From assembly GCA_046733275.1 (NCBI GenBank), contig JBKPOW010000052.1:486-64485 (forward strand): 64,000 nucleotides of DNA, read 5' to 3'. Position numbers and translations under genes: made by a program. This document shows, in pieces, positions 2,822 through 40,470 of this stretch. Under the pieces are notes generated by a model. The model worked only from the letters and a program-made list of their open reading frames with translations. It had not been told where the DNA came from and did no database searches. The stretch's first letter is position 1, and every line of letters begins with the position of its first letter. Origin of the DNA: Actinomycetota bacterium. GTDB taxonomy: Bacteria; Actinomycetota; Thermoleophilia; Solirubrobacterales; 70-9.

Positions 2822-2895
2822 GCGGCTGTAGCTCAGCTGGCTAGAGCGTCTGCTTGCCATGCAGAAGGTCGAGGGTTCGAATCCCTTCAGCCGCT
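2822..2895 (+). tRNA. tRNA-Gly (anticodon GCC), no encoded CCA
   Basis: Hand-folded cloverleaf: acceptor GCGGCTG/CAGCCGC, D arm GCTC-AGCTGGCTA-GAGC, anticodon arm TCTGC-TTGCCAT-GCAGA, T arm GAGGG-TTCGAAT-CCCTT. Confidence 0.92.
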
Positions 2896-2901
2896 TCACG
2901 C

Positions 2902-2933
2902 GAAAGCCCGCTCTACAGCGGGCTTTCGTCGTT
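2902..2933 (+). terminator. Hairpin terminator after tRNA-Gly
   Basis: GAAAGCCCGC-tctaca-GCGGGCTTTC, a perfect 10-bp stem followed by gtcgtt. Confidence 0.6.
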
Positions 2934-2947
2934 CAGGGTCTCTGAAC

Positions 2948-3056
2948 GGGAAATCAAACCATCCCCTCATATCACCTCCATTTCAGGCACTAGTGCCTCG
3001 AATGACGCCGATGCGCGGCGATTAGCGGCGATTTCGCCCGGTCCCGCCTCGCTTTA
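2948..3056 (+). repeat. Repeat family copy A-R (GAAATCAAACC box + AGGCACTAGTGCCT palindrome + GCGATTAGCGGCGAT tail)
   Basis: Aligns by eye with 20166-20220, 23808-23910 and 40408-70, and its tail aligns with 28130-85. Confidence 0.6.
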
Positions 3057-3236
3057 GCCCGGCAGCGGAGCTACGGTCGCCGCGCCGACATAAGCAAAAG
3101 TGCCCCGGCGGCGGTGGAACGCCCCGGGGCCGGCACCGAAGCTCACACTTCGATGCACGAAAGACGGTACTCGCCGTCGCCCCTATCGGGGCAGCATCGT
3201 GGCCGGCTTCGGTGCCCTAACAAAAAGGGGGGCGCG

Positions 3237-3452
3237 ATGCCCAGCACCACCATCGAGATCAGCCGCGAGCAGCGTCAGCCACTTCACCGGCTGGTGACGC
3301 AGCACATCAGCGGGATCGGCGACGTCTATTTGATGATCGAGCGGGGTGACTTTGCCATCGCCGAGCGCTTCGGCCTGGAGTTCGGTGAAGACATCGGATG
3401 CTCAACGACCTTGGCTGGGACCCCGATAACGCTCGGGACTCCTACGCGCTGA
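3237..3452 (+). CDS. Small hypothetical protein, possibly the 5' part of a frameshifted gene continuing in 3398..3691
   Basis: The ATG follows aaaagggggg. The reading frame changes near 3395. No domain recognised. Confidence 0.35.
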   Translation: MPSTTIEISREQRQPLHRLVTQHISGIGDVYLMIERGDFAIAERFGLEFGEDIGCSTTLAGTPITLGTPTR

Positions 3453-3691
3453 CGCAGCCGCGCCACGAGCTGATCGAAGCGCTGAAGCGGCTGCGCCTGG
3501 ATGCCGAGGATGGCCTTGACGCGCCAGAGGACGAGAAACGCAAGCGGGAGGAGTACGACGAGCTGATCGCGTACTTCACGCGCGCCCGCGACCTCTGCGC
3601 CGAGCTGACCGACGCACTCGACACGAGGGTCGGCGAGGGCCCCGTGAGCCTGACGATTGACCGCGAGAGCGTGACTCGCTACAGGGCTTGA
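3398..3691 (+). CDS. Hypothetical acidic protein
   Basis: The peptide LNDLGWDP..YALTQPRHELIEALKRLRLDAE resembles the next gene (MQDLRWFD..FELTLPAEALASTLTRAREDA). The stop overlaps the next start. Confidence 0.45.
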   Translation: MLNDLGWDPDNARDSYALTQPRHELIEALKRLRLDAEDGLDAPEDEKRKREEYDELIAYFTRARDLCAELTDALDTRVGEGPVSLTIDRESVTRYRA

Positions 3692-4071
3692 TGGCCTATC
3701 GCTTCTTCACTGCTGGCGACTTGCGATTTCAGCGCTCCGTTGAGAGCGGCGTCACCCGCGAGGAACAGGTGCGCGAACTCGAACAGGACGCGCAGCTCAT
3801 GCAGGACCTGCGCTGGTTCGACAGGGGGCTGGCGGAAGCCCTCCGCATGCCCGAGGTCGACCAGGACCAGTTCGAGCTGACCCTGCCAGCCGAAGCTCTC
3901 GCCAGCACGCTGACGCGCGCCCGCGAAGACGCTCGCGTCGCCTTCGCTGACGGCCTGAAGCAGACCCCAACCGAAACCGACGAGGAGCGCCGAGCGCGTT
4001 TCCGGCTCGCCGAGCAGACCTGCGACGAGCTTCTGGCCCGCCTCGGCAACCAAGAGGAGGCATCAGCATGA
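3688..4071 (+). CDS. Hypothetical protein, paralog of 3398..3691
   Basis: ATGA-type overlaps at both ends (3688-3691 and 4068-4071). Protein-like composition. Confidence 0.5.
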   Translation: MMAYRFFTAGDLRFQRSVESGVTREEQVRELEQDAQLMQDLRWFDRGLAEALRMPEVDQDQFELTLPAEALASTLTRAREDARVAFADGLKQTPTETDEERRARFRLAEQTCDELLARLGNQEEASA

Positions 4072-4376
4072 GCACCAAAACGAAAGAGGCCGCAAGCCCC
4101 AAAGCGGCGTCGAGCAAAGCCAAGGCGGCAGGCGCGTCCAATGGCGGCGCCAAGCACAAGAAGCGTCTTCGCCCCGGCGAGTTGGACGGGCTTGTCCTCT
4201 CCTACATGTGCAAGCACGAAGGAGAGCTGCCGCTGACGGCCAGCGCGATCGGCAAAGGGATCAGAAATCCTCCGCGCCGTTGCCAACTGCCTCGCCCGGC
4301 TGCGAAAGCCAAAAAGGTCCGGCTGGCGAAAAAGACTCCCCGCGCGTACGACCTGAAAGGGGTCACCGCGCGGTGA
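4068..4376 (+). CDS. Lys/Ala-rich N-tail plus putative winged-helix DNA-binding protein
   Basis: KAASSKAKAAGASNGGAKHKKR followed by LRPGELDGLVLSYM..LTASAIGKGI..KKVRLAKKTPRAYDL. A more helix-like ILRAVANCLARL is readable in a shifted frame around 4258-4300, so the gene may be damaged. Confidence 0.45.
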   Translation: MSTKTKEAASPKAASSKAKAAGASNGGAKHKKRLRPGELDGLVLSYMCKHEGELPLTASAIGKGIRNPPRRCQLPRPAAKAKKVRLAKKTPRAYDLKGVTAR

Positions 4377-4479
4377 GGGGACGGGGAAGTAGGTCGAGGC
4401 ATCCAGGCCCGGGAACGGGCCCAGGCCACCTTGGTTGCCTCGGCCGAAACCCCGCCATCCCCCGAGAAGCTGGGCACTT

Positions 4480-4593
4480 CCATCTGCGATTGTTCGAGGG
4501 TCGGGGCGCAGGCCACAGGGAGGTGAGGTGGTTCCCGTCCTTGCTTGCGGGACCTCCGCCCACCTGCCTCGGCCCTCGAACAACCGCAGATGG
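4480..4593. repeat. Long inverted repeat (21-nt arms, 1 mismatch) enclosing a GC-rich inner hairpin
   Basis: CCATCTGCGATTGTTCGAGGG (4480-4500) pairs with CCCTCGAACAACCGCAGATGG (4573-4593). It lies in a non-coding gap. Confidence 0.7.
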
Positions 4594-4689
4594 AGTTCCG
4601 GCCGGGGCACATCGGTGAACCGACGCGAACCGGCCGGGCGGGAGCCTTGCCAGGACCGCCGGGGCGCCCGCCAAGTGGGGTGAGCGCGT

Positions 4690-5214
4690 TTGTTGGCGGC
4701 GGACCTCAGTCCTGAACCGATCCACTGTGCCGAGTGCGGGCGGGAGCTGGTTGATCTCGAACCGGATGGGACTCCTCCGACGCGATGCGAGGATTGCCTT
4801 GTGCTGGGGACCGCAATCGCGGATCGGCTCTCGATCAATCTCAACGAGCTTCGGGCTCGCGCCGGTATCTCGCTGAACGAGTTGAGCAACCGGGCGGCGA
4901 TGGGCTACAGCACGATCTCGGAGATCGAGGGTGACGGCGCCCACGAATTGCGCCTGACCACGGCATTGCGGCTCGTGCATTCGCTGGGCGCCTCGATCGA
5001 CCAACTCACCGAGCGCAATTACTGGAACCCAGGCCAGATTGTCCACAATTCCCAGCACCCGCTAAAGGAACGGCTCCCCGGCTTCTTCTCGTCCTGCCCA
5101 GCAATATGCCGGTCTTCGAGCCTGCCCCGAAGTGTGATCCCGTCGCCACTCGGGAGGAGGCGGCTGCGATCTTCGGAGCGAATGCGCGTCGCGCTCGCGA
5201 GCGGCGGCACTTGA
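4690..5214 (+). CDS. Zn-ribbon-like (CAEC..CEDC) plus XRE-family HTH protein; 3' part probably out of frame
   Basis: ISLNELSNRAAMGYSTISEIEGDG..LRLVHSLGASIDQL. After about 5085 the sequence reads better in the frame of ORF 5106. Confidence 0.5.
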   Translation: MLAADLSPEPIHCAECGRELVDLEPDGTPPTRCEDCLVLGTAIADRLSINLNELRARAGISLNELSNRAAMGYSTISEIEGDGAHELRLTTALRLVHSLGASIDQLTERNYWNPGQIVHNSQHPLKERLPGFFSSCPAICRSSSLPRSVIPSPLGRRRLRSSERMRVALASGGT

Positions 5215-6023
5215 CCCAGCAAGCGCTCGGCCGTGCCGCCGGCCTCAGCAAGGCCGGCCTCTCCTTGATTGAGCGGGGTATTCGCGAGACGTCGATCCGA
5301 ACTCTCTTCGGCCTGGCCCGATCGCTGGAAGTCGCGCCCGAGTCCCTGCTCGACGGAATCGCTTGGAAGCCCGAGCGACCGCCCTGTGACGGAAGCCGCG
5401 CTCGGCATCCCGGCCGCAGCCTCGATGGGGCGATCCGTCTCCTCTGGAATGAAGAAAAGACCGCGCGAGAGATCGCCGAGGCCGTAGGTACCTCGCCGGG
5501 AACCGTTTCAGCCACCGTCCACCGGCTCAGGGAGCGTGGGGAGCCGCTTTGCTATCGGTGCCGGCCGACGCGAGCGGTTCACGAGCGCGCGCGCCGCCGC
5601 CGCCCTCTCTGTCACGCAACTTCCGGCGATGAGGACCCGCCTGTCGCTGGTGCTGTCGATCCATCAGACCGCGGCGGCGCCTCCAACGAGGAGATCGCAC
5701 TGCGGCTCGGCGCCAACGTCGCCTGTCACCGTGAGGAAACCGGTTTGAGTCTGAGGCAGTTCGCCGAAGCAGCCGAGACGCACTTCACGCATTTGTCGAA
5801 GATCGAGAGGGGAAAGTCGGGGATTCCGCAGCTAGCCCTCATCCTGAGACTGGCCGGAAGCCTCAATGCGCGGTGTGGGCTCATCACCGCCGGAATCGCC
5901 TGGGATTCGGCCTCCGGTTCGTTCCAAGTGGAGGATGCCCCGCCTGGCGCTTGGCCGCTTGGGGCAGAACGTCCTGCGCGCACGCCACCGGGGCGGATCT
6001 CTCCCAGCACCAGCAGGCCCTAA
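5106..6023 (+). CDS. Multi-HTH protein (XRE HTH, sigma70-r4/LuxR-like HTH, XRE HTH)
   Basis: LTQQALGRAAGLSKAGLSLIERG, TAREIAEAVGTSPGTVSATVHRLRERG, and LSLRQFAEAAETHFTHLSKIERG. Confidence 0.55.
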   Translation: MPVFEPAPKCDPVATREEAAAIFGANARRARERRHLTQQALGRAAGLSKAGLSLIERGIRETSIRTLFGLARSLEVAPESLLDGIAWKPERPPCDGSRARHPGRSLDGAIRLLWNEEKTAREIAEAVGTSPGTVSATVHRLRERGEPLCYRCRPTRAVHERARRRRPLCHATSGDEDPPVAGAVDPSDRGGASNEEIALRLGANVACHREETGLSLRQFAEAAETHFTHLSKIERGKSGIPQLALILRLAGSLNARCGLITAGIAWDSASGSFQVEDAPPGAWPLGAERPARTPPGRISPSTSRP

Positions 6024-6499
6024 GTGATCGGGCGTCGATGAGCCGCGGCGATCTTGTCGATTTCGAGCGTGGCGCCCGCAACTTCAGGATCTTCACGGTG
6101 GTTAGGCTCGCGGGCGCTCTGGAGATCGGCTTCGCCGAGCTGTTTGCCGGGGTGGCGGATTGCCATATCCGGCCACTCGCTCCCCCCGAATTCCTGCCGG
6201 GGGAAGCCCCGACCAAAACCGAACGCGACCAACTGCTGATCCGGCTCTGGCGGGAAGGGCGCGGGGAACGGGAGATCGCTGAAGCACTGGATCTGGCTAG
6301 AGCCTCGATCGGTCCATACATTCGCGACCTGCGCGACGCTGGGGTAGAGCTTCCCTATCGTCGCCCGCCTCGAAACCGAACTGAGCGTGCTGCTCGACGC
6401 CAACGCGATGACCACCACGTTGCCCCGTTGTCTCAAAGGCTCCCGGGGTCAGCCCAGAGTCAGGAGCATCTACTGTGTGGAAGGGGCCAGCGCCCGTAG
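5873..6499 (+). CDS. XRE HTH plus second small HTH protein (true start or frame entry near 5950-5990)
   Basis: LSQHQQALSDRASMSRGDLVDFERG and GEREIAEALDLARASIGPYIRDLRDAG. The upstream LGQNVLRARHR sits in another frame. Confidence 0.45.
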   Translation: MWAHHRRNRLGFGLRFVPSGGCPAWRLAAWGRTSCAHATGADLSQHQQALSDRASMSRGDLVDFERGARNFRIFTVVRLAGALEIGFAELFAGVADCHIRPLAPPEFLPGEAPTKTERDQLLIRLWREGRGEREIAEALDLARASIGPYIRDLRDAGVELPYRRPPRNRTERAARRQRDDHHVAPLSQRLPGSAQSQEHLLCGRGQRP

Positions 6500-6568
6500 T
6501 GCTTCTCGAGCAGGGACTCGGCTTCGGAGATCGAGAATCCCAGCTCTAGGTGTCGTCAGACCTCGGCC

Positions 6569-7183
6569 TCAGTCCTGACCGGCGTGCTTGAAGTACCCCC
6601 GCGTGAACAACTCCGCGTTCGCCCGGTTCCAGCGCTCAAGCTCCTCTGGACTGCGCCAGGGAGCCGGAAGATGCCGGTTGATCGCGCCCTCGAACAGGGT
6701 GGGGCCGAGAATCGAGACGATCGTCTGCAGTGCGGCCCACTCGATATCCGCATCGGCTCGTAGCGCTCCCGTCTCTGCCAGCAGCCTCCACTGCTCGCGC
6801 GAGATTGCCAGGAAGGCGTCGAAGATCTCCAGCGCCGCCGGGTCCCCATCGGCGCTGAGTCGCGCGACGTAGAGCAGGGCCTCGGGATGCTCGTGTGCCA
6901 AGGCCGTGACCCGGTTACCCAGTTCCCTGAGGATCTCTGCGGCCGACCCTGACGCCGGAAACTCCGCGAAGGCCTCGGCCGCCCGTTCAACGACGTACTC
7001 GTTGACTGCCTCTCGCAGCTTGTCCTTCGTCGCGAAGTGATGCTGGACCAGCCCCGCAGAGACACCTGCCGCCGCCGCCACATCCCTGATCGAGGTTGCC
7101 TCAACGCCGCTTTCGGCAAAACCCAGCAGTGCCGCTTCGCAGATCCGTTCCCGCGTGGACGGCGTCTCGACAACATTCCCCAT
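6569..7183 (-). CDS. TetR-family transcriptional regulator
   Basis: RERICEAALLGFAESGVEATSIRDVAAAAGVSAGLVQHHFATK. The start is the internal ATG (MGNVVETP) of track ORF 6569..7309. Confidence 0.85.
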   Translation of the reverse strand: MGNVVETPSTRERICEAALLGFAESGVEATSIRDVAAAAGVSAGLVQHHFATKDKLREAVNEYVVERAAEAFAEFPASGSAAEILRELGNRVTALAHEHPEALLYVARLSADGDPAALEIFDAFLAISREQWRLLAETGALRADADIEWAALQTIVSILGPTLFEGAINRHLPAPWRSPEELERWNRANAELFTRGYFKHAGQD

Positions 7184-7285
7184 ACAGGTGTATTCTACAA
7201 CCAATACGGCCGTATTGGACTGGGAGGGGCACTGGATGCATACCGCGACATCACCGGCAGCGCCGCGATCGAGAGGGGTGAGGAA

Positions 7286-7732
7286 GTGAGTGCTGCGCGC
7301 CTTCGCCATTGGACGCCCGCCCAGATCGTTGCCGCTCTCTTCGGCCTCGTCTGGGCGCTCGACGGCATTAGCTCGCTCGCCTCGGGCAGTGTCAGTTCAC
7401 TCGGTGCCCATGAAGAGGTCAGGCTCATCGGCATCCCGATTGCGGTCAACGGTTGGCACGGTGTCTTCCACCTCATCACCGGTCTCACCGGTCTCACCGT
7501 CTGCCTTCGCCCGGCGGCGGCTCGCGTTTTCGCAATCACCGGTGGCCCAATCTATCTCGCGGCGGCGCTTTGGGGACTGATGCTGGGCAGCCGCGCCTTT
7601 GGCTTGATCGACGTTGATGTCTTCGGTTCTCTCGTCCATGCGGTGGAGGGGACGGTTGTGCTTTCCGCGGGTCTTTTTTCCCCGTCCGTGGAGACCGCGA
7701 CCCCAGGGGCCGGAGCGCGGAGCGAGGCATGA
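7286..7732 (+). CDS. Small integral membrane protein (DUF4383-like)
   Basis: The GTG follows gaggggtgaggaa. There are four hydrophobic segments with WHGVFHLITG. It is divergent from the TetR gene. Confidence 0.6.
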   Translation: MSAARLRHWTPAQIVAALFGLVWALDGISSLASGSVSSLGAHEEVRLIGIPIAVNGWHGVFHLITGLTGLTVCLRPAAARVFAITGGPIYLAAALWGLMLGSRAFGLIDVDVFGSLVHAVEGTVVLSAGLFSPSVETATPGAGARSEA

Positions 7733-8733
7733 CCGCTTCTCCTGTTCGGAATGTCTGTGTGATCGGCGCGCACGGCGCCCTCGGCGGTACTGTCGTCGAG
7801 CAGTTCGACGGAGCCGGTTGGAAAGTGCATCCGGCCGGTCGCAGGCCGGATCAAGGAAACGGCTTTCGTCAGATCGACCTCGACCGTCCCGAGACAGTGG
7901 CGTCGGCCCTGCGGGATGTCGATCTGGTCATCAACACAGTGGCGCACCCGGGCTGGGCGGCCGAGCGAGCGGTGCTCGAACAGGGTGGGGTCCTCGTCAA
8001 CTGCAGCCACGCCCCCGCGCGGACCGCGGCCGCAATTACTGCCGAGGTAAGAGGGCCGAAGGGGACTGCCCTGCTCAACGCAGGCCTGGTCCCCGGCGTC
8101 GCCAATCTGGTGGCCGCCGAGTTACTAGCGGAGCATGCGCGTGCCGACTGCCTGGAGGTCGCCTTCACCGTGCTTCGTGCGGGGACGGTGGGGAGGGCCG
8201 GTGGGGAATTTGCCCATCACGGCCTGACCTCGCAGAACCATCACCGGGTGGTCGAGTTGTCGATGCCCGAACCCTTCGGCGAGCTCTCGTTCATCGAGGT
8301 GGCCGAGGACGAGGACGGGGGGTTCGGGGGCGTGGCGGGACAGCGCACCCTGGAGACCTACCTCGGTTTCGGCGACCGGCCAGTGAACCTGGCGCTGCGC
8401 ACGATGAACGCTCTGCGTCTGATCTCTGCCCTGCCCCGAGCCGCGTTCACGCTTGGCCTCAGCAAGGGGGCCGAGGCTTCCAGGGAGCCGACCGCGATCT
8501 GGGTTGGGGCGCAGCGTGGGAGCGAACGCCTGGGCGCCTCGGTGCTTGAGTGCGAGGGGGACTACCGCACTACCGCTGTGGCCTCGCGCCTGTTCGGAGA
8601 AGCACTACTTGACGGGCAAGGCCGCCCCGGGTGCTTCAACCCAGAGGATTTGTTCAGCCTCGGCGACCTGTTGCCGGCGCTCAACGATCTTGGTCTGCGG
8701 GTAACCAGAAATTGGCAGGCCTCAGGTGGCTAG
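7729..8733 (+). CDS. NAD(P)-binding Rossmann-fold oxidoreductase (saccharopine dehydrogenase/NmrA-like)
   Basis: VCVIGAHGALGG glycine-rich loop at the N-terminus. ATGA overlap with the previous gene. Confidence 0.65.
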   Translation: MTASPVRNVCVIGAHGALGGTVVEQFDGAGWKVHPAGRRPDQGNGFRQIDLDRPETVASALRDVDLVINTVAHPGWAAERAVLEQGGVLVNCSHAPARTAAAITAEVRGPKGTALLNAGLVPGVANLVAAELLAEHARADCLEVAFTVLRAGTVGRAGGEFAHHGLTSQNHHRVVELSMPEPFGELSFIEVAEDEDGGFGGVAGQRTLETYLGFGDRPVNLALRTMNALRLISALPRAAFTLGLSKGAEASREPTAIWVGAQRGSERLGASVLECEGDYRTTAVASRLFGEALLDGQGRPGCFNPEDLFSLGDLLPALNDLGLRVTRNWQASGG

Positions 8734-8772
8734 AGGCCAGCATCCCACGAGCTGGCTAGGGAGGCGCTAGTC

Positions 8773-10807: not shown

Positions 10808-10854
10808 CTGGAGGTTCTCGATTGAACGGAGGCAAGCAAATAGCAGCCAAGACA

Positions 10855-32333: not shown

Positions 32334-35300
32334 ATGACCTGCAAGGATCAAAGCCAGCGCCTACGTAAGGCGGTCGGCATAGCCCTTCTCTCTTTGGCCG
32401 CCCTGCTGATGATGGCCGGCTCGGCGTCCGCGGCAGTCGAATGGGAAGTGAACGCTCAGTGGGGTGACACCGTGCTGCGCCCCGGCGGCACCGGCGAGTT
32501 CATGCTCCGCGTCAAGAACGTCGGCACCACCGATGCCAGCGGGGCGGTGACCTTGAAGGAGCATCTGCCGCCAGGAGTGACGATGACGGGCTTCGCCACC
32601 CGAGGCCTGGCGTGGCAGTGCTTTGGGACGCAGACCGTCACCTGCGCCACGAACCTGCTGGATTCCCTCGGCAATCCGACCGGAACGGCGATGAGCACCA
32701 CCATGGAGACTTCGCATTACCTACCTCAGCTCTTCATCGAAGTCGCAGCAAGCCCGGATGCCTCCGGCACCAAGCTCAACACGGTGACGGTATCCGGAGG
32801 GGGAGGGGCGGTCGCCTCGACCAGCATGCCGGTCAGCTTCGGCGACCAGCCGACCGACTACGGCATCCTCCCGCACAGCTTCTCGCCCGCCGACGTCTAT
32901 GACACACGTTCACCGGGCCTCGGCCGCGAGCGGCAGGCCGCCACCCATCCCGAGGAGCTGAGGGTGAGGTTCGACATGAATCTGGTGCACGATTTCAATA
33001 TCAAAGGGGAATCGTTCACCGAACCGGCCGGACGTCTCCGAACCGCGGAGGTGTCGTTGCCGCGAGGCCTGGTCGGCAACCCCGAGGCGCTGCCCAAGTG
33101 CGCGACCAGCGACTTTCTGCAGGAAGGACTGAGTCCGTTCACCGCGACGGGCTGTCCCTCCAATACCCAGGTCGGCTATATCGACCTGGAGCTCAACCTC
33201 AGCGCGACGGAACATGGCTACGGAATCTTCAGTGGCGCCGGAAACGCCTTTTCCCGCATAGCCATATACAACCTCGTCGCGCCGAAGGGCACGCCGGTGG
33301 ACCTCGGCTTCCGCGCCGGTGGCTTCGTCTACGGGCATATCTACGCGCAACTGGACCCGACGAGGGACTATGCGATCAAGTCGATTTCCCCCGATATCAG
33401 CACGGGCGCGCCGGTGCGCGGGGCGCGGGTTACGATCTGGGGTGTTCCGGGGGACCCGGCGCATGACCTCTACAGGGCGGTCCCACCGGTCAACTTCACC
33501 CCAGGCGGAGCGGCTATCCATGACCGCGATCCCTACGGCGCCGCCTTCACCAACGCGCCGGTCAGGCCGTTTCTGACGATGCCCTCCGATTGCGGCACGG
33601 ACAACGGCCCCTTCCTGATGCGGGCAGACTCCTGGGCGGCAAAAGGGGAGTTCACGCCGCTGCTCGAGGGCGAAGAGCGCGTCAACGTGGAAGGTTGCGA
33701 TGACCCACGCATCCGCTTCGAACCGGAAGTCTCGATCCAGCCGACGACTAGGGACGCGAGCCAGCCGACCGGCCTCGACATCCATTTGGAGACCCCGCAG
33801 CGAGACCAGACGATCGGAGGTCCAGAGCAGGCCGGCAAGCTCTATGACCAAAGCGGCAACCTGCACGCGATCGACACCCCGCCGATCAAGAAAGTGGTCG
33901 TGCGCATGCCCGAGGGGATGACGCTCTCCGCCTCAGCGGCCCAGGGCCTCACCGCCTGCAGCGCGGCCCAGATGGGCATCGGCAACAACGACCCGGTCAC
34001 CTGCCCGGATGCCTCCCAGTACGGGACCTTGACCCTGCACACCCCCGTGCTGCCACCCGATGAACCGATGAAGGGCTTCATCTACATCGCCAAGCAGAAG
34101 GAAAACCCCTTCAACGACTTCTTGGCGATGTACTTCGTGATCGAGGACTCCGAGCGCGGCCTGCGTATCAAGATTCCCGGCCGCGTCCAGCTCGATCCGG
34201 TAACGGGGCAGATCACGACCACCTTCGACGACCTGCCCCAGTTCCCGCTCTCCGACGTGCAGCTGACCTTCAAGTCGGGAGTCAGAGCGGCGCTCGTCAA
34301 CCCGGCCACCTGCGGCAAAAAGACGATCTCGGCCACCTTCTACTCCTGGGCCGAACCAGACAACCCGATCCCCAGCGACACCGACTACTCGGTGACCCAG
34401 AAGGCAGACGGCTCGCCCTGCTTCAACAACCTCGCCGAGCGCCCCTTCAAGGCGCAGATGTCGGCGGGGATGGTCAACCCCAACGCCGCCTCTTATAGCC
34501 CCTTCGTCTTCCGCATGACGCGCTCGGACGACGATCAGGAGCTGTCGCAGATCGGCGTCTCGATGCCGGCCGGGCTGACCTCGAAGCTGGCCGGGATAAC
34601 CCGCTGCTCCGAGGAGGCGATAGCGGCGGCCTCGAACCCGCTTCGCACGGGCACCGAAGAGGCAAGCTTCCCATCCTGTCCCGCCTCGAGCCAGGTGGGC
34701 ACTACCGAGGTCGGCTCAGGTGTCGGGGTTCCCCTCACCTTCGTCCCCGGCAAGGTCTACCTGGGCGGACCCTACAAAGGCGCGCCCCTGTCATTGGTCG
34801 TCATAACCCCGATCCTCGCCGGCCCCTATGACCTCGGCGTGATCGCGGTCAGAAGCGCGATCTCCCTCGATCCCAAGACCACTGCGGTAAGCGTTCTCAC
34901 CGATCCCTTCCCGCAGATCTTTCAGGGCATCCCGGTACGTCTCAGAGACATTCGCGTGCGGATCGATCGCAAGGACATGATGCGGAACCCGACCAACTGC
35001 GATGTCAAGCAAATCCACGCGCATCTAACCGGGGCCGGAGGAGAGGTCAATACCACCGCCGATGACACAGCGGCAGATCTCTATGAACGCTTCCAGGTCG
35101 CCAACTGCGCGGCGCTTCGCTTCAAGCCGAAGCTCAGCTTCCGCCTCAAGGGGGGTACGAAGCGAAACGACCATCCCGCCTTCACCGCGACCCTTACCGC
35201 AAAGGACGGCGAAGCCAACATCGCCAGAGCCGCGGTCACCCTGCCCCACTCGGTCTTCTTGGATCAGTCCCACATAAGGACGGTCTGCACCAGGGTGCAG

Positions 35301-35756
35301 TACGCAGCAGACCAGTGCCCGCAAGGAGCGGTCTACGGCCGCGTCAGGGCCTGGACCCCGCTGCTTGACGAAACCCTGGAAGGACCCGTTTACATGCGTT
35401 CATCAAGCCATCAGCTGCCCGACGTGGTCGCGACTCTGAACGGCATCCTCGACGTTGAACTCGTCGGCCGCATCGATTCGGTCAAGGGCTCCCTGCGCAC
35501 CACCTTCGACTTCGTCCCAGACCAGCCGGTGAGCAGGTTCGTACTTTCAATGCCGGGAGGAGGGAAGGGCCTCCTGGTCAACTCGACCAATACGTGCAAG
35601 TCAACCAACCGGGTCAAAGTCCTGCTCGACGGGCAAAACGGCAAGACCGCCGATCAGTTCCCCAAGCTGCGGAACGGCTGTGCCAAGGAGACACGGCGGG
35701 CAAAGGCGCGAGGGGCCAGGCGAGCAGAGCGCAAGAGCGGGAGGACGGGCCGATGA
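32334..35756 (+). CDS. Giant secreted protein: signal peptide, DUF11/CARDB-like N-domain, repeated roughly 200-aa Cys-pair modules, basic tail
   Basis: The ATG follows gaggggaacgagg. Signal peptide LLMMAGSASA. GTGEFMLRVKNVGTTDASGAVTLKEHLPPGV. A recurring LP.G..(C)..CP..SQVG..P.L..P..G.VY pattern occurs at least 3 times. Confidence 0.8.
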   Translation: MTCKDQSQRLRKAVGIALLSLAALLMMAGSASAAVEWEVNAQWGDTVLRPGGTGEFMLRVKNVGTTDASGAVTLKEHLPPGVTMTGFATRGLAWQCFGTQTVTCATNLLDSLGNPTGTAMSTTMETSHYLPQLFIEVAASPDASGTKLNTVTVSGGGGAVASTSMPVSFGDQPTDYGILPHSFSPADVYDTRSPGLGRERQAATHPEELRVRFDMNLVHDFNIKGESFTEPAGRLRTAEVSLPRGLVGNPEALPKCATSDFLQEGLSPFTATGCPSNTQVGYIDLELNLSATEHGYGIFSGAGNAFSRIAIYNLVAPKGTPVDLGFRAGGFVYGHIYAQLDPTRDYAIKSISPDISTGAPVRGARVTIWGVPGDPAHDLYRAVPPVNFTPGGAAIHDRDPYGAAFTNAPVRPFLTMPSDCGTDNGPFLMRADSWAAKGEFTPLLEGEERVNVEGCDDPRIRFEPEVSIQPTTRDASQPTGLDIHLETPQRDQTIGGPEQAGKLYDQSGNLHAIDTPPIKKVVVRMPEGMTLSASAAQGLTACSAAQMGIGNNDPVTCPDASQYGTLTLHTPVLPPDEPMKGFIYIAKQKENPFNDFLAMYFVIEDSERGLRIKIPGRVQLDPVTGQITTTFDDLPQFPLSDVQLTFKSGVRAALVNPATCGKKTISATFYSWAEPDNPIPSDTDYSVTQKADGSPCFNNLAERPFKAQMSAGMVNPNAASYSPFVFRMTRSDDDQELSQIGVSMPAGLTSKLAGITRCSEEAIAAASNPLRTGTEEASFPSCPASSQVGTTEVGSGVGVPLTFVPGKVYLGGPYKGAPLSLVVITPILAGPYDLGVIAVRSAISLDPKTTAVSVLTDPFPQIFQGIPVRLRDIRVRIDRKDMMRNPTNCDVKQIHAHLTGAGGEVNTTADDTAADLYERFQVANCAALRFKPKLSFRLKGGTKRNDHPAFTATLTAKDGEANIARAAVTLPHSVFLDQSHIRTVCTRVQYAADQCPQGAVYGRVRAWTPLLDETLEGPVYMRSSSHQLPDVVATLNGILDVELVGRIDSVKGSLRTTFDFVPDQPVSRFVLSMPGGGKGLLVNSTNTCKSTNRVKVLLDGQNGKTADQFPKLRNGCAKETRRAKARGARRAERKSGRTGR

Positions 35757-38218
35757 AGACCGTCAAGGCAGGGTTCGCCACCGCGATAGCCGCCGCGGCG
35801 CTGCTCTCGGCGATCGCCGTCCCCGGTGCGGACGCAGAAGTGCTCTACCAGAAGACCGACCTGCTGGTGCCGACGAATGCTTATTTCCCGAGCGGCATGG
35901 ACATCGACCACTCGACTGGTGATCTTTATGTGGCGGGGGTTCACCAAGGCCTTCACCGCTTCAGTCCCGATCGGGTCGAAACCACCTACGGGCCCGCAAT
36001 CGACTTCAAGTCGGTAGCGGCGGCGCCGGAGCATAAGTCCTTCGGGCTGACCGCGAAAACGACCAGGATGATTGCGTTGGACGCCTCAGGCAACCAGACT
36101 GCCTCCTTCGGCGTAGGTGGCTCGCCCGGCGATATCGGCACCGATGCCGCCGGCAACGTCTTCGTGCCCGCCCCGGCCGCCATAACCAACGAGCAGCAGA
36201 CGCTGACGATCAGCGCGACCGGCGGCACCTACACGCTCAGCTTCGAAGGGCAGAGCACGGGCACGATGTCATTCGATGCCAGCGCGGAAGAAATTCAAAC
36301 TGCCCTGGAAGGGCTCTCGCCGATCGGCGCCGGCAACGTCGAAGTCAGCGGCAGGACCATCACCTTCCAAGGCGTGCTCGCTGGCATCGACGTACCCGAG
36401 CTCACCGCCGACACTTTGCTCTTGACCGGCGGCTCGCTGAAAGTCGAAACGACCGTGATCGGCTCGACCTATCCCCTCGCGGGCGTGCGCGAGTTCAGCC
36501 CCACCGGCACCCTGAAGCAGGTGATTGACTGCAGCGCCTGCCCCGCGCCGGCTGAATTCAGCAAACCCGCGGCGGTCGACTTCGACGCAGACGGCAACAT
36601 GTATGTGGCAGATTCCGGTGGAGCGCGCGTGATCAAGTTCGTCGCATCGGCCGGCGATCCGACCGATTACACCTCTGTGCCGCCGGAGGTCTTCAGCACG
36701 GGCGCCTCGGTAGCTGTAGCGGTGGACCGCTCCAACGGCGATGTCTTCATCGGTGGAGACGACGGCAGTGGCTATCACGTCACCGGATACCACTCCGATG
36801 GAGTCAAGTTCACCGATTTCGGTCTTGGTGAGCTCGACAACCTGGGCGAACTGGCCGGCGAATTCTTTGGCATGTTGCCCGACCAGCTCGCGGTCGATCC
36901 GCAGACCGGCCACGTCCATGTCGATGACATCAACTTCAGTGGGGAAAGCCGTATCTGGGAGTATGCCCCCGTTCTCGCTCCAACCGAGAGCCCTCTACCG
37001 GCAAGTGGCATCACCCAGGACACTGCCACCCTCAACGCCACGGTCAACCCAATGGGCGACACGGTCATCGCCTGCCACTTTGAATATGGCCTCGACACGA
37101 GCTACGGCCAAAGCACCGAGTGCGCCGACTACCCGGGCTTTGGCACCGACCCGGTCGGGGTAAGCGCCGACATTGGTGGCCTGGCCCCAAACACCACCTA
37201 CCACTACCGAGTGGTGGCCACCAACGCGGCGGGCACGAGCGAAAGCACAGATGAAGAATTCACGACCCTGGTAGAGAAGCCGATCGTCTCGACTGGATCC
37301 GCCTCCGCGATCAGCGCAACCGCAGCGACGATCTCAGGCTCGGTAGATCCCAAAGGCAGCGCGACCAGCACCTGCCATTTCGAATACGGCACCACCACCG
37401 CCTATGGCAGTCAGGCCCCCTGTCCCACCGACCCCGGAGAAGGCCAGGGAGCCGTAGGGGAGTCCCTCCCCGTCAGTGGCCTGGCCCCCAACACCACCTA
37501 TCACTACCGCCTGGTGGCTGAGAACCCAGGCGGGACTTCCCGGGGGGCCGACGGCTCCTTCAAGACCCTGCCCAGGGCACCGGGCACGAGCACCGGATCG
37601 GCCTCTGACCTGACCCCGACCACCGCAAAGGTCGCAGGCTCGATCGATCCTCAGGGGGTGCAGGCCTCCTACCGCTTCGAATACGGCACGACTCCGTCCT
37701 ATGGTCAAAGCAGCCCCGCGGGCGGTGCCGGCGGCCAAGGAGCGCAAGCGGTGGCGGTTTCCCTGGCATCGCTCAAACCCTCGACCACGTACCACTATCG
37801 CCTCATTTCAAGCAACGCGGGCGGCGCTACCCAAGGTGCCGATCGGACATTCACCACTCAAGCACGCCCCAAGGGCAGGTTGATATTGCCCGCCACTGCG
37901 GTGCTCAGAGGCAAAAAGGCGGCGGTCCCGCTCGAGTGCAGAGGCGCCAAGATTGCTATCTGCGAAGGCACCCTGACCCTGCGCGCCAGGGTGAAACAGG
38001 GAATTCGCTTGACCTTGGTCCAGATCGGTCAGGCGGCTTTCCAGGTCGACGGCGATGAGACCAAAGCGGTCTCGGTCACCCTCAACGGCAACGGCAGGAA
38101 AGCCCTTGCCGGCACAGACGGAAAAGCGCTTAGAGCAATCGCTTCTGCCGACGGCCACAACCGCGAAGTGCGCATTTCCCCGCGCGCAAAACGCAGCAAG
38201 CATGCGAAGAAGCGCTAG
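35753..38218 (+). CDS. Secreted NHL-repeat plus 3x FN3-like (HFEYG..APNTTYHYR) protein, basic tail
   Basis: ATGA overlap with the previous gene. Signal peptide AAALLSAIAVPGADA. There are three tandem domains of about 95 aa, ending PRAKRSKHAKKR. Confidence 0.8.
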   Translation: MKTVKAGFATAIAAAALLSAIAVPGADAEVLYQKTDLLVPTNAYFPSGMDIDHSTGDLYVAGVHQGLHRFSPDRVETTYGPAIDFKSVAAAPEHKSFGLTAKTTRMIALDASGNQTASFGVGGSPGDIGTDAAGNVFVPAPAAITNEQQTLTISATGGTYTLSFEGQSTGTMSFDASAEEIQTALEGLSPIGAGNVEVSGRTITFQGVLAGIDVPELTADTLLLTGGSLKVETTVIGSTYPLAGVREFSPTGTLKQVIDCSACPAPAEFSKPAAVDFDADGNMYVADSGGARVIKFVASAGDPTDYTSVPPEVFSTGASVAVAVDRSNGDVFIGGDDGSGYHVTGYHSDGVKFTDFGLGELDNLGELAGEFFGMLPDQLAVDPQTGHVHVDDINFSGESRIWEYAPVLAPTESPLPASGITQDTATLNATVNPMGDTVIACHFEYGLDTSYGQSTECADYPGFGTDPVGVSADIGGLAPNTTYHYRVVATNAAGTSESTDEEFTTLVEKPIVSTGSASAISATAATISGSVDPKGSATSTCHFEYGTTTAYGSQAPCPTDPGEGQGAVGESLPVSGLAPNTTYHYRLVAENPGGTSRGADGSFKTLPRAPGTSTGSASDLTPTTAKVAGSIDPQGVQASYRFEYGTTPSYGQSSPAGGAGGQGAQAVAVSLASLKPSTTYHYRLISSNAGGATQGADRTFTTQARPKGRLILPATAVLRGKKAAVPLECRGAKIAICEGTLTLRARVKQGIRLTLVQIGQAAFQVDGDETKAVSVTLNGNGRKALAGTDGKALRAIASADGHNREVRISPRAKRSKHAKKR

Positions 38219-38981
38219 GGCTCTTTCCCTGGCCGCTGCGCTGGCGATCGCCGTGGTGGCGATTGCCGGCGCCGAGGTGGGCCAGCAAGGCAACCTGCGG
38301 GTCGCCTTCGAAGGCAAGATCACCCCCCACGCCCTGCCGAGGAACAAAGAGGTGCCGGTCGCGGTCTCCTTCAGTGGCCGCATCACCACCACCGACAACA
38401 GCGAACCTCCGCCGCTTCGAACAATCCGCCTGGCGATCAACAGAAACGGCCACATCGACTACAAGGGCCTGCCCAAATGCCGCTACAACCGCATTCAGCC
38501 CTCGAACAACCACGAGGCGCTCGAGGCCTGTCGTTCCTCCTTCGTCGGCATGGGGCACTTCTCGGCCAAGGTGCTGTTGCCAGAACAATCCCCCTTCCCC
38601 TCGGAGGGCAAGGTCTTGGCCTTCAACGGCGAAATGCTCCAGCACCCGGTCATCTTCGCCCACATCTATGGCACCAGGCCGGTGGCCACGTCCTTTGTGC
38701 TCCCCTTCGTCGTCCGTCATTCAAATGGGCGCTACGCCACCACCCTCGTTGCCTACCTGCCCAAAGTGGGCGTTAAATGGGGCTTCGTCACCGCTGTCAG
38801 CTTGAAGCTGCAGCGCACCTTCGAGCTGAACGGCCGCACCCATAGCTACCTCTCCGCTGCTTGCAGCGCTCCCGATGGCTTTCCCGGCGCCATCTTCTCC
38901 TTCGCCAAAGCCGAATTCGCCTTCGCCGAAAACCGGACCGTATCGACGCCTTTGACCCGCAGCTGCAAGGTGCGGGACTGA
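38202..38981 (+). CDS. Secreted 259-aa protein homologous to the Cys-pair module of the 32334..35756 product
   Basis: 17-nt overlap with the previous gene. Signal peptide LAAALAIAVVAIAGA. LRVAFEGKITPHALPR..LPKCRYNRIQ..ACRSSFVGMG..EGKVLAFNG. Confidence 0.7.
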   Translation: MRRSARALSLAAALAIAVVAIAGAEVGQQGNLRVAFEGKITPHALPRNKEVPVAVSFSGRITTTDNSEPPPLRTIRLAINRNGHIDYKGLPKCRYNRIQPSNNHEALEACRSSFVGMGHFSAKVLLPEQSPFPSEGKVLAFNGEMLQHPVIFAHIYGTRPVATSFVLPFVVRHSNGRYATTLVAYLPKVGVKWGFVTAVSLKLQRTFELNGRTHSYLSAACSAPDGFPGAIFSFAKAEFAFAENRTVSTPLTRSCKVRD

Positions 38982-38999
38982 GACTGGCGGCTTAGGACG

Positions 39000-39745
39000 G
39001 CGCTAAGACCAGCTCGGGCGGATTCCGCCTGAGTGAATCGCTGGGCATACGCCGTCGGACGATTCCCCGGGGGTCTCGCCGCTCGTGTCTGGGTAGGTTG
39101 TCTCCATGTCCGGCGAAGCGCGTTGCGAGTCGAGACTGAAGCGTCCCTCACCGCCATCGTTGCCGAGCGTGTCTACGCGGGCGTTGAGCTCGCCGACGTG
39201 TTGGCGGCCGCGGGCACAGCGGAGGCAGGCTTCTCACCACGTCGGCCGCCTTGACGGTGGGGAATGCCCGTGAGGCCAAAAACAGGCGAGTGATCGTCGA
39301 GCATGTTGAGGATCTCCGCGCGTCCTCCTGTGGCGGGGGCCAGTGGGTGACGTCGGCCTGCCACATCTCGTTGGGCAGCTCGGCTTCAAAGCGAAGGAGC
39401 GAGGAGCGCGGGCGCTGCGCTCGGCCAGGTGGTAGGCGATCGTCGCCGCTCCGCAGTCGTGGCCTTCCTTGCTCAGCTGTCTGCGCAGGGCGACGATCGC
39501 ATCGGCGAGCTCGGCAGAGGTCCCGTTCGACGAGCTGCGCGGCGCCCTGGAGCGGCGCTCCAGGGCGCCATACCCGCCCGCCCTGTAGCGGGCCAGGAGC
39601 TTGTAGATCCAGCTGCGATGGACTCCGTGCGCCGCCGCCAGCTCGCTGACTGGGCGGCCCTCAACAGATGCGCCTCCACCAGATACCGCGCCTTGTCCCA
39701 CAGGAGAGCTCCCCTCATTGGAGATCCTCCCCCCGTAATTCCTGA
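39000..39745 (-). mobile_element. IS481-family transposase remnant (N-terminal HTH through the DDE core), with multiple frameshifts and a deletion
   Basis: GRPVSELAAAHGVHRSWIYKLLARYRAGGYGALERRSRAP, FEAELPNEMWQADVTHW and EILNMLDDHS, spread over three frames. Confidence 0.7.
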
Positions 39746-39759
39746 GATTCAGATGGAGA

Positions 39760-40330
39760 GGCCGAGCGCAGCGAGGCCGCCGCAGAATCCCTGGAAGCAC
39801 AGAGAGCCGGCGCCGAGCGCGATGCTCGCCGGGCCGTGGCGCGCGGGCTGGTGGCCGCGCTCGACGCAAAGATCAGAACCGCCCTGATGGCCCACCCGGA
39901 CGCCGAAGTCTTCGCTCCCCTGTTCCGCAGCGCCAAGACGACGATCTGCCCGGCGACTCTGATCGCTGAGATCGGTGACCGCAGGGGCCGCTACCCCACC
40001 GAGGCCGCGCTGGCGGCCGACGCAGGAATGAGCCCGGTCGCGCTGGAGTCGGGGAAGATGCGCGTCGCGACCTTCAGGCGCGCCTGCGACAAGCGGCTGC
40101 GAAAAGCCGTCACAGTCCTCGCCGACTCCACCCGCCACTGGCATCCGTGGGCCAAGGACGTCTACGAGCGAGCCCGGGCCAGAGGCTAGGACCATCCGCA
40201 CGCGACCCGCACCCTGGGGCGCGCCTGGATCAGGGTTCTGTGGCGCTGCTGGCAGGACGGAGTGCCCTACCTCCCGTCCTTGCACGGGAACCTGGGATTC
40301 GGTGTCTCCTATGTCCTGACACAGGTGTCG
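39760..40330 (+). pseudogene. IS110-family (DEDD) transposase, C-terminal half only, with an in-frame TAG at 40187
   Basis: TLIAEIGDRRGRYPTEAALAADAGMSPVALESGK..RRACDKRLRKAV..WAKDVYERARARG*DHPHATRTLGRAWIRVLWRCWQDGVPY. Confidence 0.75.
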
Positions 40331-40351
40331 CTTATGTGGTGGAAACCGGAC

Positions 40352-40470
40352 ACCATCAGCCGCTTCGCTTCGAATCCCCTGCACTTCGGCGGGTTGGCCC
40401 TCCGGGAGGAAATCAACCATCCTGTCGCCTCCATTTTGGGCATTAGTGCCCGAAATGACGCGGATGCCAC
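40352..40470 (+). repeat. Module D: last 12 nt of the tRNA-like core, spacer, R-type box with GGGCATTAGTGCCC palindrome
   Basis: CCATCAGCCGCTTCGCTTCGAATCCCCTGCAC aligns with 23748-23780. Palindrome at 40438-51. Confidence 0.6.

Follow-up and report, generated by a model that had tools for sequence, protein, structure and literature searches.

The 38 kb that follow a tRNA-Gly(GCC) gene in the DNA analysed here probably arose as at least four or five non-autonomous integrative units accumulated in tandem, each inserted by tyrosine-recombinase integration with the enzyme supplied in trans, a reading that we hold with moderate confidence. The sequence derives from an Actinomycetota bacterium (Solirubrobacterales; 70-9) in a soil metagenome assembly (GCA_046733275.1, contig JBKPOW010000052.1) and covers 64 kb of genome (hereafter the window). 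Judged by sequence, the units are members of one family, termed type B, which is defined by an attP-like module of ~325 nt.

Direct repeats of the tRNA-Gly 3′ half

The array is anchored by an intact tRNA-Gly(GCC) at 2822-2895 on the plus strand (ARAGORN and Rfam agree; Rfam 71.2 bits), which forms the attL side and whose anticodon loop TTGCCAT (2854-2860) is the putative crossover region. A 43-nt core extends from this loop to one base past the tRNA 3′ end (2854-2896) and recurs on the same strand at 20073-20115 (43/43) and 23718-23760 (41/43). For the tRNA 3′ part itself, the direct matches span 20074-20115 with no mismatch and 23719-23760 with two, where shuffled sequence gives an expectation of 0.00. 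The initial annotation had placed these two copies and their direct orientation correctly, and the block reaches 43 nt once an extra T on each side is counted. It had also described a 12-nt remnant at 40352-63; a remnant is present, with its size and position amended to 13 nt at 40353-40365 (CCATCAGCCGCTT, plus strand), and is validated by the next ~95 nt, which have homology to what follows the other copies. Spacings between successive copies are 17,219, 3,645 and 16,605 nt, in line with the segments of ~17, 3.6 and 16.6 kb proposed earlier. The division into only three segments did not hold, however, as the array contains at least five units or remnants.

Both mismatches in core copy 3 belong to one compensatory T-stem pair (GAGGG..CCCTT to GTGGG..CCCAT), and this allele occurs in functional tRNA-Gly genes of the relatives L002, L003, L005 and L006. 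The left edge of tRNA identity falls on the same anticodon-loop base in every copy and in all element types described below. As in other tRNA-targeting elements, the window units have the tRNA 3′ part at both ends and the intact tRNA at one. Self-comparison identified att-type direct repeats rather than a dispersed repeat, and all genome-derived loci have their half copies in arrays with a full tRNA-Gly as anchor.

How the units are ordered across the 325-nt repeats depends on the metagenome assembly from which the window was taken. The tandem order could in principle be a chimera that joins units of different strains at repeated att modules, and contigs of the public run do break at att repeats, but we find this scarcely credible. 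Depth in run X1 was uniform (~9-11x) over the unique parts from the end of unit 1b to the start of unit 3 (18.5-25.5 kb), and the arms differ by 7-17% between copies, which is enough for reads to resolve them. Moreover, comparable tandem arrays occur in many independent assemblies, chromosome-scale contigs included (L087, L125, L129, L167, L172, L184 and L185).

Each core lies within an attP-like module

The repeats are larger than first noted. Each core sits in a ~325-nt module composed of a P arm of ~175 nt, the core and a P′ arm of ~100 nt. Every copy is followed by a conserved P′ arm (2897-2997, 20116-20213, 23761-23872 and 40366-40460, all on the plus strand), characterized by ATCAAACCATCCCCGCATATCGCC and GGCACTAGTGCC; in the first of these a terminator-like hairpin (2905-2927) precedes ATCAAACCATCCCCTCATATCACCTCCATTTCAGGCACTAGTGCC. 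The fourth belongs to the left end of a further unit, the fourth or fifth, most of which has been deleted. Copies 2 and 3 are preceded by conserved P arms, those of unit 1b (19898-20072) and unit 2 (23548-23717), both again on the plus strand. In the P arm, ~148 nt ahead of the core, lie a palindrome, TCGGGCACTC-N8-GAGTGCCCGAA, and GCATATC repeats. A truncated fossil P arm that has lost its core lies at 13817-13892 on the plus strand (palindrome TTCGGGCACTCG-N6-CGAGTGCCCGAA plus GCTGCATATC), and because of this copy segment 1 is read as two fused units, 1a and 1b, with a deleted junction between them.

Across 14 independent junctions, pairwise identity is 57-80% within the module compared to 33-44% just outside it. 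Nor is the P arm confined to tRNA-Gly: tRNA-Val(TAC) and tRNA-Ala(CGC) cores have its palindrome at a constant distance of 148-151 nt.

Such conservation might alternatively reflect regulatory DNA, namely a tRNA terminator together with promoters and operators of hicBA and DUF433 genes, in an array that grew by homologous recombination or duplication and not by site-specific integration. Palindromes are found ~75 nt upstream of hicB (P) and ~90 nt upstream of DUF433 (P′), the end modules are conserved as blocks that include hicBA or DUF433, and the bare palindrome appears in unrelated contexts as well; part of the arm conservation could indeed stem from promoter or operator roles for these neighbouring genes. 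As an account of the whole array, this explanation is improbable. Window units 1 and 2 keep their arms without HicAB or DUF433, conservation is unbroken from palindrome to core, and the spacing to the cores of three different tRNAs is constant. Against it also stand the shared left edge of tRNA identity, the different natural compensatory tRNA-Gly alleles borne by the half copies, and the unrelated cargo between the repeats, for which duplication does not account.

An empty site in a relative

In the relative L035, tRNA-Gly is followed after 36 bp by tRNA-Cys, which represents an empty attB. The corresponding tRNA-Cys(GCA) in the window lies at 41588-41658 on the plus strand (ARAGORN) and serves as the right-hand landmark of the insertion. 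Homology between the window and L035 ends exactly at 2896 and restarts at ThrRS, ~49.5 kb; in relatives, hypervariable content likewise begins exactly at the tRNA-Gly 3′ end. The GC content of the island is ~0.65, against 0.70-0.73 in the flanks. Together with the att-type repeats and the anchored half copies, the empty site supports the earlier proposal of successive site-specific integrations into a tRNA attB.

Cargo and decay of the window units

Functions were assigned with Pfam. Unit 1a (cargo 2897-13892) carries four small ORFs without assigned function, HTH regulators, a TetR regulator, an epimerase, a methyltransferase, two P450s and further ORFs of unassigned function, and a PHROGs search of this cargo matched nothing. 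Unit 1b (13893-20072) encodes an RPE65-type carotenoid oxygenase, a SnoaL protein, a cyclase domain, a PspC/LiaF-like protein, a histidine kinase and a LuxR-type response regulator. Unit 2 (20116-23717) contains a P450 (20726-22159, minus strand), DUF6463, TetR and a truncated HicB remnant recognized by translation (23273-23452, minus strand); its end (23245-23760) shares ~91% identity with the end module, hicBA plus the P arm, found in L008, L137 and L083. Unit 3 (23761-40352) includes a DUF433 gene (~23959-24198), and 23718-24215 is 85-86% identical to the P′-plus-DUF433 end module of L006, L184 and L125. It also contains DUF4145, a VapBC-like RHH plus PIN pair (25799-26454), a TIG/PASTA protein and three giant fn3/NHL-repeat ORFs (28643-38981).

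Unit 3 also holds the only recombination-type remains in the array, as the initial annotation had observed, and Pfam identified both. IS481 debris lies at ~27.1-28.1 kb (rve_3 at 27641-28096 on the minus strand, plus HTH pieces), and a C-terminal Transposase_20 fragment of an IS110 element (39836-40189) replaces the P arm of unit 3 and the 5′ part of the next core. Both arms and cores are kept in units 1b and 2, and units 1a and 3 retain one intact end each. Integration and transfer genes are missing from the window units, with relaxase and T4SS domains not seen by Pfam.

No recombinase in the array

The array was searched for a recombinase in all frames of 2.8-41.2 kb. A Pfam scan of the main ORFs detected no tyrosine or serine recombinase, a six-frame Pfam scan of 143 gap fragments found no Phage_integrase or Resolvase domain, an iterated tyrosine-recombinase HMM gave zero matches in any frame, and tblastn with the type A and type C integrases introduced below returned nothing in the array at E<=1. 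The absence of such genes from the 38 kb, first noticed from the sequence alone, is thus borne out, including by the six-frame HMM search that had been proposed as a check. The integrase gene inside the element and beside the att site, by which tRNA-targeting elements are recognized, is lacking in the window units. Having no recombinase of their own, the units probably rely on integrases whose genes lie in other elements targeting this tRNA site in sister genomes.

In relatives, a recombinase gene does lie nearby. A 293-aa Xer-type protein (Phage_integrase plus SAM_1) is encoded there ~4.5 kb upstream of tRNA-Gly and is syntenic with it in at least 11 of them, so that a resident Xer-type enzyme might insert and excise cassettes in the manner of an integron or an IMEX. 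We regard this as very improbable. The gene is present at the empty site of L035 too, within a housekeeping-looking block with a sigma factor and EF-G, and the protein has no arm-binding N-terminal extension, whereas the sites have the long arms typical of heterobivalent integrases. There is no evident dif-like 28-nt site, the units are multi-gene, with genes in both orientations, and the same-arm arrays at tRNA-Val and tRNA-Ala are not known to have an Xer-type neighbour.

Integrase-bearing elements share the crossover point

In sister genomes, two classes of integrase-bearing elements share the anticodon-loop crossover at tRNA-Gly, and in some cases they stand in tandem with type B units. 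Type A elements (6.8-8.5 kb) carry an integrase just inside attL plus a Replic_Relax or TrwC relaxase; type C elements carry an integrase plus an AAA_25 helicase, and their attP bears the tRNA 5′ half. The identity blocks of types A and B on one side and the mirror-image type C on the other overlap only in TTGCCATGC. The type A integrase was located at the tRNA-Gly attB in 9 of 9 contexts, and L184, L185 and L086 have it in tandem with type B arms; in L087 and L192, type B arrays have a type C integrase immediately upstream of their anchor tRNA. In L086, moreover, the cargo beside a truncated integrase copy is 96% identical to that of an integrase-less unit in L006.

These two abundant Solirubrobacterales integrase families are the best candidates for the trans-acting enzyme, and mobilisation of type B units in trans is plausible. 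However, the repeated arm motifs differ between the classes (TGGGCAG in types A and C, GGGCACT and GCATATC in type B), and for this reason the type A and type C integrases may fail to recognize type B arms. Assembled contigs of public runs also yielded no excision product or circle junction, and no type B unit that differed in presence between near-identical genomes.

The favoured model is then as follows. Units would have been inserted one by one between tRNA-Gly and tRNA-Cys by crossover in the anticodon loop TTGCCAT. Each incoming unit would carry its own tRNA 3′ half and rebuild the tRNA, displacing the older 3′ half downstream. The recombinase would be supplied in trans, most readily by type A or type C elements, which use the same crossover point. 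The window array has also entered decay through loss of a junction, truncation of hicB, IS insertions and truncation of a core.

An integrase-less family

Type B extends well beyond the window. A tRNA-Gly half lies at +148 from the canonical P arm at ~50 of 99 metagenome loci and in the genomes L006 and L008, and the P′ arm occurs in further genomes. Arms of this type delimit 15 complete units of 1.3-17 kb, located in the window and at 12 other loci. Type B ends often hold toxin-antitoxin genes (DUF433 beside P′, HicAB beside P), and the mutually unrelated cargo between them varies freely, with regulators of its own and genes on either strand that number from 1 to more than 20. None of the 15 complete units encodes an integrase, and neither a matching integrase nor an autonomous element with type B arms was present among the ~55 loci bearing these arms; no dedicated type B integrase was found. 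In viral contigs neither type B arm was present, and the integrase had only one distant relative there.

It is conceivable that the units are simply autonomous elements that decayed independently, leaving the att copies as scars in an immobile array. The window does show decay: a deleted junction at 13.9 kb with its truncated P arm, the truncated hicB, the IS481 and IS110 insertions and the truncated last core. Elsewhere, L086 has its truncated integrase copy, and the second unit of L185 has degenerate type A arms. Comparison of identity between units and flanks gave no sign of recent transfer. We nevertheless consider this origin rather unlikely. The module is conserved well above its surroundings and core copy 2 still matches at every position. 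Independent decay should also leave many intermediates with integrase genes or fragments, which the integrase counts above do not reveal; one arm is also coupled at a fixed distance to three tRNA cores.

A more far-reaching version of the trans-mobilisation reading is possible, though we advance it tentatively. Type B would be a self-sustaining lineage of integrase-less cassettes, not decay products, and a tRNA-anchored analogue of integrons, with an arm code used on Gly-GCC, Val-TAC and Ala-CGC cores and toxin-antitoxin ends for retention. Such cassettes would be shuffled by type A or type C integrases, or by a dedicated integrase encoded elsewhere.

Relation to known systems

Both CIMEs and the stacking of elements in tandem at tRNA genes are established concepts, drawn chiefly from Firmicutes, Streptomyces and marine cyanobacteria. 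The array is of this known kind, an accretion of CIME-like units, and its novelty lies in an integrase-less lineage that is widespread and has conserved arms of its own. Like CIMEs and the tandem ICE/IME accretions of Streptococcus thermophilus (ICESt1/ICESt3) and the Streptomyces pathogenicity islands, the window units keep attL and attR and lack integration and transfer genes. Section 2.3 of PMC5704250 (citing Pavlovic 2004, Bellanger 2011, Zhang & Loria 2017) describes CIMEs as attL/attR-flanked, without integration and transfer genes, arranged in tandem at the 3′ end of the target gene and movable by a neighbour's integrase. CIMEs are, however, portrayed as products of decay with the same att sites as the ICE they came from, whereas type B is a widespread lineage with arms distinct from those of co-resident integrase-bearing elements, and no autonomous parent was found. 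Type B units may likewise be mobile in trans.

Prochlorococcus tycheposons similarly form tRNA-anchored islands by repeated same-site integrations, with partial tRNA copies between elements and degenerate remnants, and the autonomous ones encode a tyrosine recombinase together with a small replication module (bioRxiv 10.1101/2020.12.28.424599). Compared by organisation alone, this logic is shown by types A and C of relatives and is absent from the window units. Tycheposons belong to a different phylum and were found as integrase carriers, their integrase-less material being described as degenerate fragments and not as a conserved-att family.

The actinobacterial tyrosine integrase of mycobacteriophage L5 recombines an attP/attB common core of ~43 bp that overlaps the 3′ end of tRNA-Gly, with arm-type sites on both sides. 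Core size and target resemble those of type B, by description only; L5 is a phage with its own int next to attP, and type B has no integrase.

Integrons and superintegrons share with type B arrays of integrase-less, diverse-cargo units, each with a recombination site, with the recombinase outside the cassettes and toxin-antitoxin genes inside. Membership is rejected, as no attC-type sites are present and the intI/attI/Pc platform is missing at the array head, where VOC, RNase H-like and EF-G-like genes lie upstream of tRNA-Gly instead. Integron cassettes are mostly single, promoterless and co-oriented with attC hairpins, in contrast to the multi-gene units on both strands, with their own regulators and ~325-nt attP-like tRNA-core modules, seen here. 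IMEX elements, which use XerCD at dif, are also recombinase-less and pile up in tandem at a host site. Their target is dif rather than a tRNA anticodon arm, and the long arms of type B point to a heterobivalent integrase; membership is again rejected, because the flanking repeats are tRNA-Gly 3′ halves and a role for the nearby Xer gene is unsupported.

To our knowledge, mobile elements are almost unknown in Solirubrobacterales and other Thermoleophilia, which are abundant soil actinobacteria. Here, three element classes use one crossover point in one tRNA, two of them integrase-bearing with mirror-image attP (3′ half versus 5′ half) and one cargo-only. If mobilisation in trans is true, they would offer a simple, testable system for non-autonomous cassettes that parasitise site-specific integrases, and would shed light on the exchange of metabolic genes (P450s, oxygenases), regulators, and defence and toxin-antitoxin genes among soil bacteria. 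The ~325-nt module also provides a practical annotation signature for islands missed by integrase-based island finders.

At the right-hand end of the array, a residual segment (40461-41587, plus strand) holds a second VOC/glyoxalase gene (~41160-41547) that abuts tRNA-Cys. This segment may be old chromosomal flank, because L008 has a VOC gene immediately after its last half copy.

tRNA-Gly halves delimit a tandem array

tRNA genes were identified with ARAGORN and Rfam at 2822-2895 (Gly, GCC), 41588-41658 (Cys) and 47146-47218 (Val). The window is high-GC DNA (0.70-0.73 in the parts flanking the array) of a Solirubrobacterales-like actinobacterium, and its flanking VOC gene is most similar to Solirubrobacterales MAGs (77-85% identity). 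The 3′ part of tRNA-Gly recurs in direct orientation at 20074-20115 (copy 2, no mismatches) and 23719-23760 (copy 3, two mismatches), with none expected from shuffled sequences; the initial annotation had placed half copies at these same positions. Including flanking T's the identity block spans 43 nt (2854-2896 equals 20073-20115), and a 13-nt core remnant (copy 4) lies at 40353-40365. No half copies of tRNA-Cys or tRNA-Val were found within the window. Copy 3 differs at two positions that pair with each other in the T stem, a compensatory change, and the same allele is the functional tRNA-Gly of several relatives, indicating that the copies trace back to genuine tRNA genes or attP sites that differ in origin rather than to local duplication.

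Syntenic loci were collected in one genome-collection scan using the VOC protein as query. In one relative (L035) tRNA-Gly is followed after 36 bp by tRNA-Cys and then tRNA-Val, which is the empty site that the initial annotation had proposed to look for. Homology between the window and this locus stops exactly at 2896 and restarts at ThrRS (49457-51400). The corresponding gap measures 1.3 kb in L002, 7.2 kb in L001 and >6-10 kb in others. A further pair of relatives, L006 and L010, is 91% identical through the final base of the tRNA and unrelated beyond; it was dropped as an empty-site pair because divergence past the tRNA is complete and there is hence no clean insertion polymorphism.

About 4.5 kb upstream of tRNA-Gly, at a position that synteny places immediately outside the left end of the window, lies a gene for a 293-aa Xer-type tyrosine recombinase (Phage_integrase and SAM_1 domains; L006:5339-6220, syntenic in L002-L010, L035 and L181-L192), followed by a sigma factor. 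Every close relative, the empty-site genome among them, retains this gene, which is probably housekeeping XerC yet is notable beside an integration hotspot.

The repeats are conserved att modules

The repeats are att modules rather than naked tRNA halves. A related stretch of ~100 nt (the P′ arm) follows all four copies and holds a terminator-like hairpin, ATCAAACCATCCCCGCATATCGCC and a GGCACTAGTGCC palindrome. Directly upstream of copies 2 and 3 there is another related stretch, of ~175 nt (the P arm), containing AATCAAACCGCCACC, the palindrome TCGGGCACTC-N8-GAGTGCCCGAA, two GCATATC motifs, GAAATCCCTGCAA and a GGCCTAA touching the core. A truncated P arm without a core at 13817-13892 indicates that segment 1, between copies 1 and 2, consists of two units joined by deletion. 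In all copies identity with the tRNA starts at one and the same anticodon-loop base (TTGCCAT), and the anticodon loop is the usual crossover position of tyrosine integrases targeting tRNA genes.

Across 14 independent P-core-P′ junctions the ~325-nt block shows 57-80% pairwise identity, compared with 33-44% directly outside. The palindrome arm is also found 148-151 nt upstream of the 3′ halves of tRNA-Val(TAC) (L090, L165) and tRNA-Ala(CGC) (L179). Conservation of the arm, its fixed distance and the interchangeable cores argue for a function in recombination; the arm likely plays a dual role, acting additionally as a hicBA promoter or operator.

The bare palindrome was rejected as a family marker because roughly half of its 99 metagenome matches were in unrelated contexts (AT-rich MITE-like hairpins, a tRNA-Lys terminator and arm variants at other tRNAs). 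The same 28-nt palindrome, here TCGGGCACTC-N8-GAGTGCCCGA and thus sharing a half-site with the arm, forms the tip of long AT-rich MITE-like hairpins in metagenomes of unrelated low-GC organisms (L085, L094, L095, L098, L107, L109-L111, L119, L122, L130, L132, L138, L143 and others).

The window contains cargo without a recognisable recombinase

Pfam searches of the main ORFs between 2.9 and 43.4 kb identified cargo apart from two transposase fragments, with no recombinase among the families listed; these alignment-mode screens report top families, and a strong recombinase match would still have appeared. The cargo includes HTH and TetR regulators, an epimerase, a methyltransferase, three P450s, an RPE65-type oxygenase, SnoaL, a PspC/histidine kinase/response regulator set, DUF6463, DUF4145, PIN and giant fn3/NHL proteins. 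The two mobile-element matches are an rve_3 fragment on the minus strand (27641-28096) and an IS110 Transposase_20 fragment (39836-40189). All 143 stop-free fragments of at least 60 aa from six frames of the unannotated gaps were then screened, giving matches to DUF433, RHH, HicB-like, cupredoxin, DUF4383 and IS481-type HTH pieces, while Phage_integrase, Resolvase and Recombinase domains were all absent among the families listed. An HMM seeded with Xer and iterated until it recognised the phage-type integrases of other loci gave no tyrosine-recombinase match in any frame of the window, and tblastn with both integrase types described below gave none at E<=1. Together these searches bear out the earlier claims that the array carries no visible recombinase and that its transposase genes are IS481 and IS110 debris. 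Neither the small ORFs at unit ends nor those adjoining type A integrases (see below) were recognised as excisionases using PHROGs and Pfam.

A widespread family of integrase-less units

Units between tRNA-Gly and a half copy also occur in relatives (1.7 kb in L003, 5.4 kb in L006, 5.9 kb in L008), with arms of the window type, hereafter type B, at both ends in L006 and L008 and a P′ arm in L009. Scanning metagenomes for the P-arm palindrome returned 99 loci, of which ~50 have the full P arm; in these a tRNA-Gly half lies at +148 wherever the contig extends far enough. Fifteen complete units could be delimited (the window and 12 other loci), ranging from 1.3 to 17 kb and typically ~3.5 kb, and an integrase was found in none of the 15. 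Their cargo is varied (P450, hydrolases, an SMC-like ATPase with DUF4145, SIR2, TPR, a PD40 propeller) and their ends recur, with HicAB directly inside the P arm and DUF433 directly inside the P′ arm. In the window these end modules, a truncated hicB (23273-23452) and a DUF433 gene (~23959), are 85-91% identical to counterparts in other loci. Comparison of unit with flank identity, as a test for recent transfer, gave no excess identity.

Unbiased ORF clustering of arm-bearing loci revealed no hidden recombinase among the recurring clusters, which comprise only HicAB, a second small gene pair, an IS481-type transposase and a sigma70_r4-like protein. The small pair (85 and 98 aa, no Pfam match; L089:1546-2086, also L102, L120, L163 and L187) lies just to the inner side of the P arm or directly after a half copy; placed where HicAB sits in other units, it may be another toxin-antitoxin pair.

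Integrases of other elements act at the same tRNA

Two integrase families with 46% mutual identity are both abundant in Solirubrobacterales. The type A integrase (as in L086; ~410-430 aa; Phage_integrase, SAM_3 and Int_M domains) lies at this tRNA-Gly attB in 9/9 contexts examined. Its elements begin at tRNA-Gly with a P′ arm containing GCTGCCCA repeats and then the integrase, directed toward the tRNA; next come a small ORF, a relaxase (Replic_Relax or TrwC) and regulators, and the far end is formed by a P arm bearing a TTGGGCAGCG palindrome and by a half tRNA. Five complete examples span 6.8-8.5 kb. In L184 and L185 the junction after the type A element begins with a type B P′ arm. L086 has a type A element immediately after a type B P arm with its half copy, and in the same locus a truncated integrase copy (93% identical) adjoins cargo 96% identical to that of the integrase-less unit of L006.

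The type C integrase (as in L087; ~415 aa) is encoded by a gene ending 0-14 nt before a full tRNA (Gly in L087 and L192; Val-TAC in L090, L193 and L194), and the far end of its elements (L192:5334-11341, L087:4538-7843, L193:2998-11323, L194:10001-11324, L090:1-655) carries the tRNA 5′ half that was displaced, together with the native promoter. The type C attP therefore carries the 5′ half and promoter, and is a mirror image of the usual 3′-half design. Its identity block shares only TTGCCATGC with the type A and B blocks, which places the crossover in the anticodon loop. Type B arms lie directly downstream of the type C-adjoining tRNA in L087 and L192.

The presence of types A and C at this site, in tandem with type B, indicates that the clade commonly has enzymes that cut this site and that these reside alongside type B units. 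The repeated arm motifs differ, being TGGGCAG in types A and C versus GGGCACT and GCATATC in type B, and none of the loci examined has an integrase lying between type B arms. The L087 integrase was considered as the missing type B enzyme and rejected, as it belongs to a third class with the tRNA 5′ half in attP. A phage partner is likewise not supported: viral contigs scanned with both arm patterns gave no matches, and the integrase query found a single distant relative there.

Accretion, mobilisation and decay

The array is a tandem accretion at tRNA-Gly of non-autonomous att-flanked units. This agrees with the model of CIMEs and accretion put forward for ICEs of streptococci and for islands in Streptomyces (PMC5704250) and recalls tycheposon islands, which have partial tRNAs between elements (bioRxiv 10.1101/2020.12.28.424599). 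Beyond these descriptions, the integrase-less units constitute a widespread lineage with its own conserved attP-like module, which is also joined to other tRNA cores and has no visible autonomous parent. The mechanism with the best support, as an inference, is mobilisation in trans. In this particular genome the array shows decay (one junction is deleted, hicB and the last core are truncated, and IS elements have inserted), which makes a partly or wholly fossil state a serious alternative. Joints in the Logan contigs of other public runs are rearranged variants from other strains rather than excision circles.

The window, which covers 64 kb of its genome, comes from a metagenome assembly, on which the order of units across repeats depends. 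One soil-metagenome run, the source, contains the sequence almost completely, with uniform depth over 18.5-25.5 kb, and comparable arrays occur in many independent assemblies.

Further features of cargo and flanks

The P450s of units 1a and 2 (9515-12059 and 20734-22006) are inverted paralogues with ~75% identity over 660 nt. A P450 in the metagenome locus L127 matches that of unit 2 at 82% identity, and the entire unit 2 cargo is found again in other soil runs at 90-95% identity. Three very large overlapping ORFs (1219, 1189 and 874 aa) and a 308-aa ORF occupy 28643-38981, with weak fn3, NHL and purple-acid-phosphatase-N matches and repeats with a 300-nt period at 37.07-37.70 kb; as cargo of the island they probably encode repeat proteins that are secreted or displayed at the surface. 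The region between the divergent genes for SnoaL and the cyclase-domain protein holds a perfect 27-nt inverted repeat (15988-16014/16103-16129, spacer 88 nt).

VOC/glyoxalase paralogues lie immediately before tRNA-Gly (2221-2778) and tRNA-Cys (~41160-41547), and L008 has a VOC gene immediately after its final tRNA-Gly half copy. A lower-GC stretch extends beyond tRNA-Cys (41659-44434); it contains no tRNA-Cys half copy, and its two ORFs (556 and 341 aa) have no Pfam or PHROG match. In the empty-site relative an integrase fragment directly follows tRNA-Cys (L035:2815-3126), suggesting that tRNA-Cys may be a second integration site.
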